From assembly GCA_000004985.1 (NCBI GenBank), contig GG739467.1: a DNA stretch of 1,262 nt. One strand, written 5' to 3'. Position 1 is the stretch's first letter. Each line of letters begins with the position of its first letter. This DNA is from Naegleria gruberi (lineage: Eukaryota). Under the pieces are notes generated by a model. That model was not told where the DNA came from and made no database searches. It saw only the letters and a list, made by a program, of their open reading frames with translations. A program made the position numbers and the translations under genes. This document shows, one piece after another, positions 1-1,262 of this stretch.

Positions 1-107
1 CTGTTCACACCGGGGGTCGGTAACCCTCCCCGCCTGATGAAGGGCGGTGGGCACCCCCAGCCCTTGCGGCTGGGAGCCAAGGCAGCGCGTAACTGCGGGG
101 CGCTGCT

Positions 108-176
108 AACCAACCAACCAAACCTGACCCGCCACCAGCCAACCAGCCCACCAGCCAGCCAACCACCAGCCACGCG
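108..176 (+). repeat. Degenerate CCAACC/CCAGCC hexamer-like low-complexity tract (C/A-rich microsatellite-like)
   Basis: The sequence TAACCAACCAACCAAACCTGACCCGCCACCAGCCAACCAGCCCACCAGCCAGCCAACCACCAGCCACGCG was read directly. It contains (CCAA)x3 followed by repeated CCAGCC/CCAACC units. Confidence 0.8.
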
Positions 177-235
177 CCCTCTGGCCCACCCAGGCCACGC
201 GTGCGGTCGAGGCACCCTACAGCCAGCCGGCAGAA

Positions 236-257
236 CCCACGGCCATTCCCACGGCCA
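236..257 (+). repeat. Short direct repeat CCCACGGCCA x2 (period 12)
   Basis: CCCACGGCCA at 236-245 and 248-257, separated by TT. Confidence 0.7.
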
Positions 258-298
258 ACGGTCCAACCCGCTGCCAGTCCTGACCCCAGGGCTGTCCA

Positions 299-330
299 GG
301 GAGCCTCCCGCGTGTGTGACCCGGGAGCCT
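299..330 (+). repeat. Direct repeat GGGAGCCT x2 (period 24) flanking a short (GT)4 run
   Basis: GGGAGCCT at 299-306 and 323-330, with GTGTGTG at 313-319 between them. Confidence 0.6.
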
Positions 331-388
331 AGGAGGGCCCCCCAACCGTCCGGCCCAACCGCTGCCCCTGGGGCCGATTCAGATACCT

Positions 389-499
389 CAACCGCAGCCT
401 TTTGGGCTGCCCACAGCCAAACCGCAGCCTTTTGGGCTGCCCAGATCCTACCAGCCTACCACCGCAGCCCTTTGGGCTGCCCTACCACCACAGCCAGCG
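389..499 (+). repeat. Three imperfect tandem copies of a ~22-nt core ACCGCAGCCYTTTGGGCTGCCC separated by variable CCA/CCTACC-rich linkers (unit lengths ~30 and ~40 nt)
   Basis: Core copies read directly at 391-412 (ACCGCAGCCTTTTGGGCTGCCC), 421-442 (identical) and 461-482 (ACCGCAGCCCTTTGGGCTGCCC, one substitution). Linkers are CACAGCCAA, then AGATCCTACCAGCCTACC, then TACCACCACAGCCAGCG. Each core contains an inverted repeat GCAGCC-TTTT-GGCTGC that can form a 6-bp stem with a 4-nt loop. Confidence 0.9.
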
Positions 500-561
500 A
501 AGCCTGGACCGAGGGGAAACCCTTGACCCGGGACGAGCCAGCTGTTTTTCAATATTGATTA

Positions 562-576
562 CCCGCATTAAGCGGG
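562..576 (+). other. Small perfect hairpin CCCGC-ATTAA-GCGGG in the proximal ETS, immediately after a T5 run (545-549)
   Basis: Inverted repeat read directly: CCCGC (562-566), loop ATTAA (567-571), GCGGG (572-576). It is preceded by GCTGTTTTTCAATATTGATT. Function unknown. It could be an ETS processing or snoRNA-associated structure, or fortuitous. Confidence 0.4.
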
Positions 577-613
577 AAACCCTCGCAAGAGGAACCCCAT
601 ACCTCAGAGACCC

Positions 614-630
614 AAACGATTCATTCGTTT
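614..630 (+). other. Hairpin AAACGA-TTCAT-TCGTTT in the proximal ETS
   Basis: 6-bp perfect inverted repeat with a 5-nt loop, read directly at 614-630. Confidence 0.4.
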
Positions 631-748
631 AGGCTCAAATCGAGTTCATAATGGCAAACGGATGGATAGCCAGTAGGTGGTGCAAACCAACGAACGCTTG
701 AAATCCAACCGGAGCGCAAACAAGGTAAAACTCGTTTTGCTCCAGTGA

Positions 749-1262
749 TACCTGGTTGATCCTGCCAGTACTATATGCTTGTCTCAAAGCCTAAGCCATG
801 CAAATGTAAGATCAATCATATGCGGTTTCGGCCGTGTATAATGATAGTCTGTGGAAGGCTCATTATAACAGTTATACTCCTAGCCACTGGAAAGTTTACA
901 AGGATACCACCGTTAACTGCAGCGATAATACTTGTTCCCTTCGGGGTGGTAATAGTATTTGTGCTGAAGCCTAGCTATTGTAACCTAGTTTTTCGGGTGT
1001 GGCAACATATTCGGGGGATTAGGAATCGACCGCTAGCAGGTGCCTTCGGGCGCGGGAAAGTGAATTAACAAGGTTTTCATAAGGCCTTTCAGGTTTGCTT
1101 TTTCTAGTGGCCAGGCAGAGGAGTTTCTTACCTATCAGCTCGTTGTTTGTTTAAAGGACAAACCAGGCTTTGACGGGTACGGGGAATCAGTGTTCGATTC
1201 CGGAGAGGGAGCCTGAGAAATCGCTACCACATCTAAGGACGGCAGCAGGCGCGCAAATTACC
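749..1262 (+). rRNA. Small-subunit (18S-type) ribosomal RNA, 5' portion; partial, truncated at the window's right edge
   Basis: Positions 749-770 read TACCTGGTTGATCCTGCCAGTA, the universal eukaryotic SSU 5' terminus (EukA primer site AACCTGGTTGATCCTGCCAGT). Downstream conserved SSU blocks occur in the expected order: GCTTGTCTCAAAG...TAAGCCATGCA (775-802), GGCTCATTATAACAG (857-871), and GACGGGTACGGGGAATCAGTGTTCGATTCCGGAGAGGGAGCCTGAGAAATCGCTACCACATCTAAGGACGGCAGCAGGCGCGCAAATTACC (1172-1262). The last block matches the eukaryotic consensus ...GGAGAGGGAGCCTGAGAAACGGCTACCACATCCAAGGAAGGCAGCAGGCGCGCAAATTACC. The GCGCGCAAATTACC variant is eukaryote-specific, distinct from bacterial GGCAGCAGTGGGGAAT. 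The 5' end to this block spans ~514 nt against ~400-430 nt in yeast or human, implying ~100 nt of expansion in the V2 region (~900-1170). Confidence 0.93.

Follow-up and report, generated by a model that had tools for sequence, protein, structure and literature searches.

The stretch of 1,262 nt analyzed in this study (hereafter the window) raises the question of what kind of genetic element it was taken from, since a GC-rich upstream part with an open reading frame (ORF) of 173 codons, which public assemblies list as a gene, precedes what resembles the beginning of a ribosomal RNA gene on that strand. When the entire window was compared with all Rfam families, a sole significant match was obtained, to the eukaryotic small subunit model (RF01960, SSU_rRNA_eukarya), which covers positions 749–1262 of the plus strand and model positions 1–445 of 1831 with 281.6 bits (gathering score 50; E-value 6.1e-83). 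Nothing but the 3′ end of the window clips this match. Other SSU models from the clan gave three matches that overlap with it, all of them scoring lower, which makes RF01960 the best of the four and agrees with the preliminary description, where a eukaryotic 18S rRNA gene had been proposed to start in this region; the boundaries recovered, 749 and 1262, are exactly those given there. Both of the blocks that it had named as eukaryotic SSU signatures are in place, TACCTGGTTGATCCTGCCAGTA at 749–770 and GGCAGCAGGCGCGCAAATTACC at 1241–1262, and the similarity continues far past the first ~25 nt, spanning 514 nt in the window and the full 2,020-nt 18S rRNA gene in a longer contig with the same DNA (L001). 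Positions 749–1262 are the first quarter of a eukaryotic 18S rRNA gene, and a chance match is excluded. An A1 processing site is predicted at 748/749, and the pentanucleotide AGTGA directly precedes the 18S 5′ terminus in 14 of 14 related contigs. The features identified in the window are listed in Table 1.

Table 1. Features of the 1,262-nt window, with the observation on which each is based.
Feature	Position	Strand	Basis or remark
C-rich part of the spacer block, ~67–70% G+C	1–455	+	Composition; sequence unconserved upstream of ~455
173-codon ORF, judged spurious	37–558	+	No Pfam match; region unconserved
Fourth hairpin similar to those at 390–489	58–72	+	Resembles the 390–489 hairpins
Low-complexity C/A-rich tract, (AACC)n and (ACCAGCCA)n	108–172	+	Tandem Repeats Finder; repeat families D3 and D4
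Unit with hairpin GCAGCC(T/C)TTTGGGCTGC, present in three direct copies at 30/40-nt spacing	390–489	+	Hairpins at 394–410, 424–440 and 464–480
Conserved proximal spacer	490–748	+	82–95% identical in nine other lineages
Helix with GNRA tetraloop, core GAGGGGAAACCCTTG at 511–525	504–533	+	Best covariation support; conserved G·U pairs
Near-invariant AT-rich box TTTTTCAATATTGATTACC	545–563	+	G+C falls from ~65% to 46%
Hairpin CCCGC-ATTAA-GCGGG	562–576	+	C-G, U·G and U-A variants
Hairpin CCTC-GCAA-GAGG, GNRA loop	581–592	+	Alignment and fold
Hairpin GGAGCGCAAAC...GTTTTGCTCC, stopping 5 nt short of the 18S 5′ terminus	711–743	+	Essentially unchanged in nine close lineages
18S (SSU) rRNA gene, 5′ 514 nt: 5′ domain with V1–V2 variable regions	749–1262	+	RF01960; truncated by the window end
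Mature 18S 5′ terminus TACCTGGTTGATCCTGCCAGTA	749–770	+	Model position 1 aligns at 749
NaeglF192 (Naegleria 18S primer) site	961–989	+	26/29; 3 mismatches to the N. fowleri-based primer
NaeglR344 (Naegleria 18S primer) site, exact reverse complement, in the variable V2 region	1085–1109	+	Primer match, 25/25

Source contigs were found through the exact protein sequence of the 173-codon ORF. The same DNA is present in four contigs, L001 (JGI 3300048928, 6,516 nt) and L002, L003 and L004, which come from three different SRA runs (SRR36294995, SRR35925737 and SRR17405566). L003 is 100% identical to the window, and L001 and L002 each differ from it by 1 nt (99.9% identity over the full length in the case of L001). 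Rfam models place a complete 18S rRNA gene at 1428–3447 of L001 (2,020 nt, 1393 bits), a 5.8S rRNA gene at 3481–3625 and the LSU rRNA gene at 3773–6516, so that the window belongs to an operon with the order 18S–ITS1–5.8S–ITS2–28S. By these Rfam boundaries ITS1 is 33 nt and ITS2 ~147 nt long, and at least 2,744 nt of the 28S rRNA gene are present. On the other side, L002 reaches 1,169 nt upstream of the window.

A chimeric join had been left as one option by the preliminary description, that is, an assembly artefact in which a GC-rich prokaryotic or viral piece (1–748, with the 173-aa gene) was fused to a contaminating 18S fragment. Such an origin would account for the abrupt change in composition (70% vs. 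46% G+C) and for the annotation of the 173-aa ORF by gene callers, but the junction is identical in four independent assemblies, one from JGI and three from SRA runs, with an agreement of at least 99.6% across spacer and 18S rRNA gene, and the same spacer layout, with a conserved block of 250 nt abutting the 18S rRNA gene, is shared by 14 related contigs. The 173-aa ORF itself is unconserved and has no Pfam match, and scans of the IMG/VR viral contigs with two window-derived patterns found nothing. On the sequence data, the chimeric join is rejected here, its probability being very low.

To which organism the operon belongs was assessed with published diagnostic oligonucleotides tested on L001 and the window. 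The sites of two Naegleria 18S primers, NaeglF192 and NaeglR344 (sequences from PMC11614516), both lie within the window. The Naegleria-genus ITS primers match at 21 of 21 positions each, one at the 3′ end of 18S and the other at the 5′ end of 28S; JITS-F and Nae3-F match at 20 of 20, and Nae3-R shows two mismatches. The NAEG1088 probe, in what we take to be its sequence, has 0 mismatches here. Because the “genus-specific” ITS primers have been found to amplify Vahlkampfia too, the ITS primer matches count as family-level evidence.

The lengths of the transcribed spacers are similar to those published for Naegleria. With the genus primers the predicted ITS amplicon is 409 bp, and ITS1, 5.8S and ITS2 together comprise 322 nt (33 + 175 + 114, with an assumed 5.8S boundary). 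An amplicon of 408 bp with ITS1, 5.8S and ITS2 of 33, 175 and 113 nt has been described previously (PMC3167841); the 33/175 combination typifies the gruberi–australiensis–clarki–italica group, and the corresponding values for Vahlkampfia avara are 28/145/162. An ITS1 of ~33 bp combined with a 5.8S of 175 bp, which most Naegleria species show, is thus present in the window organism, given the assumed 5.8S boundary. In these measures, its closest known counterparts are gruberi-group species with 33/175/~113, such as N. philippinensis (408-bp amplicon), with which it shares the 33-nt ITS1 and the lack of an SSU group I intron, and from which it differs by an amplicon one base longer. The rDNA of the window organism has a G+C content of 46.8%, and 46.5% has been published for the cistrons of N. 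gruberi and N. fowleri.

Naegleria fowleri was considered as a candidate and rejected. Its 18S rRNA gene is what the diagnostic Qvarnstrom triplex PCR detects; the window organism has an identical site for the reverse primer and agrees with the forward primer (NaeglF192, three mismatches) at 26 of 29 positions, but the sequence of the probe NfowlP is missing, with no match within six mismatches in the rDNA examined. The two mismatches to Nae3-R and the ITS1 of 33 nt point in the same direction, the ITS1 of N. fowleri being longer.

Related contigs give additional support to this placement. A metagenome scan with the NaeglR344 site identified 12 of them, with 18S rRNA genes 94.6–99.7% identical to that of the window organism. 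The closest relative with long flanks, L010 (18S 99.5% and proximal spacer 95% identical), carries an insertion of ~1.3 kb in the 530 loop of the 18S rRNA gene (S516-type site, L010 8118–9414), in which Rfam identifies a GIR1 lariat-capping ribozyme (8337–8533, 202.7 bits). From these features we read the insertion as a twin-ribozyme intron of group I; this type has been reported only from Naegleria, Allovahlkampfia and Didymium, and in some Naegleria species it combines GIR1, GIR2 and a homing endonuclease at the 530-loop site. L005 (~439–1753) and L018 (~5017–6337) carry insertions of that size at the corresponding site. The twin-ribozyme intron is missing from the 18S rRNA gene of the window organism, as it is from many Naegleria species; its presence in a relative supports the clade and is not a property of the window's own unit. 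These signatures place the window organism almost certainly in the Vahlkampfiidae and, with a high degree of probability, in the genus Naegleria, the genus assignment resting on oligonucleotide signatures, lengths and the intron of one relative rather than on phylogeny. Within the genus, it is read as a free-living member of the gruberi-like group and not as N. fowleri.

One further peculiarity of the 530 loop was left out of this evidence. At L001 2076–2095, the normally universal sequence GCCAGCAGCCGCGGTAAT reads GCCAGCACCCGCGGTAAT. The variant CAGCACCCGCGGTAAT was traceable to trypanosome 18S primers only, which provides a weak hint to Discoba, and the variant may be a trait shared in that group.

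Naegleria rDNA has been reported exclusively from closed circular extrachromosomal elements (CEREs) of 11.8–16.2 kb, present in ~4,000 copies, and none has been reported from chromosomes. Published examples include the CEREs of N. gruberi strains EGB (MG699123) and NEG-M (AB298288), N. fowleri LEE (MT741533), N. australiensis (OQ627480) and N. pringsheimi (OR045415). The rDNA of the window organism is compatible with such elements in the size and composition of its single 18S–5.8S–28S cistron (~5.86 kb, ~46.5–46.8% G+C) and in having, upstream of it, an AT-rich and repeat-bearing non-ribosomal sequence (NRS), which is found in L002 with 23–45% G+C. An unmatched ORF located just upstream of the 18S gene is a further likeness to the N. 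gruberi CERE. On one strand of L010, the 28S 3′ end (1–392) is followed by 7,075 nt of spacer and then by the 18S rRNA gene, which corresponds to a unit of ~14.2 kb and falls within the CERE size range; this unit length was measured in the relative L010 only, and ~7 kb of the window's own unit were recovered.

Two locations of the unit had been offered by the preliminary description, a nuclear rDNA repeat and an extrachromosomal element as in some protists, and the latter is the likelier one in view of the Naegleria/vahlkampfiid signatures and the published restriction of Naegleria rDNA to CEREs. The window's unit very probably resides on a CERE of ~14 kb, which would be present in thousands of copies per cell; this assignment is taxonomic, since circles and tandem arrays look alike in the contigs. 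The head-to-tail order of 28S, spacer and 18S in L010 would equally be expected for a chromosomal tandem repeat, be it of a vahlkampfiid that keeps chromosomal rDNA or of another eukaryote, but the Naegleria signatures are present, chromosomal rDNA is absent from the published genomes of three Naegleria species, circular rDNA has been described as general in schizopyrenid amoebae, and the ~14.2-kb unit matches the CERE range, all of which make a chromosomal array quite improbable. Circular multicopy episomes with rDNA also occur in other protists, such as the rDNA episome of Entamoeba histolytica and the rDNA circles of Euglena. These elements belong to unrelated lineages and are organized differently (that of Entamoeba is a palindromic two-unit circle), and the 18S rRNA gene of the window is vahlkampfiid.

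The AT-rich spacer of L002 contains four copies of a 34-nt repeat, CAACTCCCGAACGGCTGCGATTCAGACGATTCCG, at 223–256, 429–462, 521–554 and 601–634, two of which are 97% identical and two degenerate. Among the relatives, L014 (C687J35504_10000831) has a length of 21,989 nt, which exceeds that of any published CERE (11.8–16.2 kb), and end overlap was not seen in the 12,268 nt of it that were examined. This contig may hold more than one unit, or it may be part of an element of larger size.

Upstream of the 18S gene, positions 1–748 of the window are a non-coding spacer composed of two parts. The G+C content is ~64–73% across 1–540 (55% in the last bin only, which contains the switch), with a strong C-richness of the plus strand, and ~46% across 541–748. 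In L002, the GC-rich block begins abruptly 129 nt upstream of the window, directly after the AT-rich NRS, and is 667 nt long. The same layout, an AT-rich NRS followed by a GC-rich and C-rich block, ~210 nt with 46% G+C and the 18S rRNA gene, is present in eight relatives with enough flanking sequence, the exception being L006, which is without a strong GC-rich block. Across the relatives the block varies from ~400–500 to 1,395 nt (512–1,395 nt in one of the comparisons); its place and composition are kept, and its sequence is not alignable between lineages. The motif CCAGCC is enriched on the plus strand in all relatives, and a hairpin at the position of the third direct copy (464–480) is retained in relatives with other stem sequences. 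Positions 1–455 most likely represent the variable 5′ part of the 5′ external transcribed spacer (5′ ETS). In L006 (1–2765), identity is 97% over the initial 567 nt of 18S and just ~60% in the proximal spacer, and divergence of the spacer far exceeds that of the 18S rRNA gene in this contig.

The window had also been described as rDNA and not a protein-coding system, and this is borne out by its two sizeable ORFs, at 37–558 and 775–1068, neither of which has a significant Pfam match. No Pfam match at all was obtained for the former, and the latter matched PrgI only, with 13.6 bits against a cut-off of 27 (E-value 0.1). A weak match to DUF3800-XI at 19–64 (15.9 bits, E-value 0.99) is noise. Stop-free runs of 102–318 codons are found in the GC block of every relative. 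A coding role was rejected for both ORFs on the basis of the negative Pfam results and these comparable runs, and the ORF at 37–558 is best regarded as a by-product of stop-poor, GC-rich DNA.

Conservation of the spacer starts at ~455–500 and extends to the beginning of the 18S rRNA gene. The proximal 370 nt fold far better than shuffled sequences (z −5.7), and in a consensus of local hairpins built on the nine-lineage alignment, 96% of the cells are paired. Five pairs show compensatory change, compared with 2.0 ± 1.0 in shuffles, and the values drop sharply when the partners are slid against each other; this covariation support is modest, with nine sequences and a structure derived from the same alignment. 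In the helix at 504–533 (helix 1), 4 of 12 pairs have changed on both sides, and the loop region occurs as GGG-GAAA-CCC, GGG-GCAA-CCC, GGA-GAAA-UCC, GGU-GCAA-GCC and GG-GAAA-CC. In the hairpin closest to the 18S rRNA gene (helix 9, 711–743), 13 of 14 pairs are invariant in nine close lineages. The AT-rich box is recognizable even in L006, the most divergent of the spacers, and might be either a processing or U3-binding signal or, in a rival view discussed below, the site of the transcription start. Positions 490–748 most likely constitute the structured 3′ part of the 5′ ETS, in which SSU-processome and A0/A1 signals would be expected.

The literature searched offered neither a promoter map nor an ETS description for Naegleria rDNA, and the start of transcription was approached through comparison of the spacers. 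A bipartite motif, TCGACCCCCCC-N16/17-TCCTAACCTTGCGGACAGCAAGAT, is always situated at the switch from AT-rich to GC-rich sequence, at distances of 722–1,605 nt from the 18S rRNA gene in four lineages (L010 −722, L013 −942, L014 −959 and L015 −1605). In the window organism, it is located at L002 1041–1094, which is 76–129 nt upstream of the window. Among eight lineages whose upstream sequence is long enough for the comparison, four (L006, L009, L017 and L018) gave no detectable motif. We tentatively suggest that this boundary motif could be the Pol I promoter, or the region of the start, on the circular rDNA of Naegleria, and that the GC block could be a fast-evolving 5′ ETS of variable length, a combined reading to which we give somewhat less than an even chance. 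In the main reading, Pol I would start ~80–130 nt upstream of the window, at the bipartite motif on the boundary between AT-rich and GC-rich DNA, and the transcript would run through the fast-evolving, C-rich and length-variable 5′ ETS (1 to ~455) and the conserved, hairpin-rich proximal ETS (~490–748), until cleavage at 748/749 releases the mature 18S 5′ end.

Transcription might instead start inside the window near the AT-rich box (545–563), which would leave a short 5′ ETS of ~200 nt and make ~460–544 (85 nt) the core promoter; the three hairpin repeats at 390–489 and the GC block would then lie upstream of the transcribed part and might act as enhancers, as proximal terminators or as fork barriers. 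A start at this place would fit the sharp drop in G+C at ~540, and the AT-rich box is the most conserved element of the spacer, kept in L006 where nothing upstream of it aligns. Between-species conservation sets in just ~60–90 nt ahead of the box, and Pol I core promoters are typically of this size. Against it, the helix at ~504–533, which precedes the box, stays paired by way of compensatory and G·U changes and has GNRA loops in five variants. Both G·U pairs and GNRA loops are signatures at the RNA level on this strand, and they argue for a start upstream of ~500 and not at the AT-rich box. In addition, the boundary motif stays with the distal AT/GC boundary although the distance of the latter varies, which would be expected of a GC block inside the transcription unit. 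A start within the window thus appears rather unlikely, and the comparison moderately favors a Pol I start at the boundary motif, with the whole window inside the pre-rRNA. More broadly, there is good reason to regard the window as part of a Naegleria-type heterolobosean rDNA unit, comprising spacer (1–748) and 18S start, very probably carried on a CERE and most likely transcribed in full by Pol I. Of this picture, the identity of the rRNA, the continuous rDNA operon, the Naegleria/vahlkampfiid signatures, the conserved layout and the RNA-type covariation were observed, and the start site, the roles in processing, the circularity and the copy number are inferred.

An object of this kind, the 5′ ETS and 18S start of a Naegleria-type amoeba, is already known and ordinary; only the comparative spacer map and the candidate promoter motif are mildly new. 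Biologically, little is added by one more non-pathogenic Naegleria rDNA unit, present in at least four environmental data sets. Expression vectors for Naegleria that are based on CEREs still lack defined promoters and origins, and those who try to build them may profit from the conserved layout of the spacer, the promoter candidate and the structured proximal part of the ETS. It is advisable to label the window as eukaryotic (amoeba) rDNA and to drop the 173-aa “gene” that public assemblies list for it.

In PLSDB, a search retrieved the universal 18S core only, in six unannotated “plasmids” (NZ_CP050525.1, NZ_CP104508.1, NZ_CP090427.1, NZ_CP087163.1, NZ_CP048737.1 and NZ_CP117868.1), and a Naegleria element was not found there. 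These six records, some of them just 1.2–1.8 kb in length, match positions 1171–1262 of the window at 91–93% and are probably eukaryotic rDNA fragments deposited as plasmids. The preliminary description had also considered that a eukaryotic contig might turn up in a prokaryotic or viral data set, and this is realistic, as two GTDB “bacterial” MAGs hold Naegleria-type rDNA contigs. One of these contigs, L017 (DYOB01000097.1, 9,410 nt), is included in a MAG labelled Borreliella garinii, and the other, L018 (JARLHW010000166.1, 14,317 nt), in a MAG labelled Desulfosporosinus sp. Their 18S rRNA genes are 93–95% identical to that of the window organism, and both contigs are mis-binned eukaryotic DNA. 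At 14.3 kb, L018 has about the length of one CERE.
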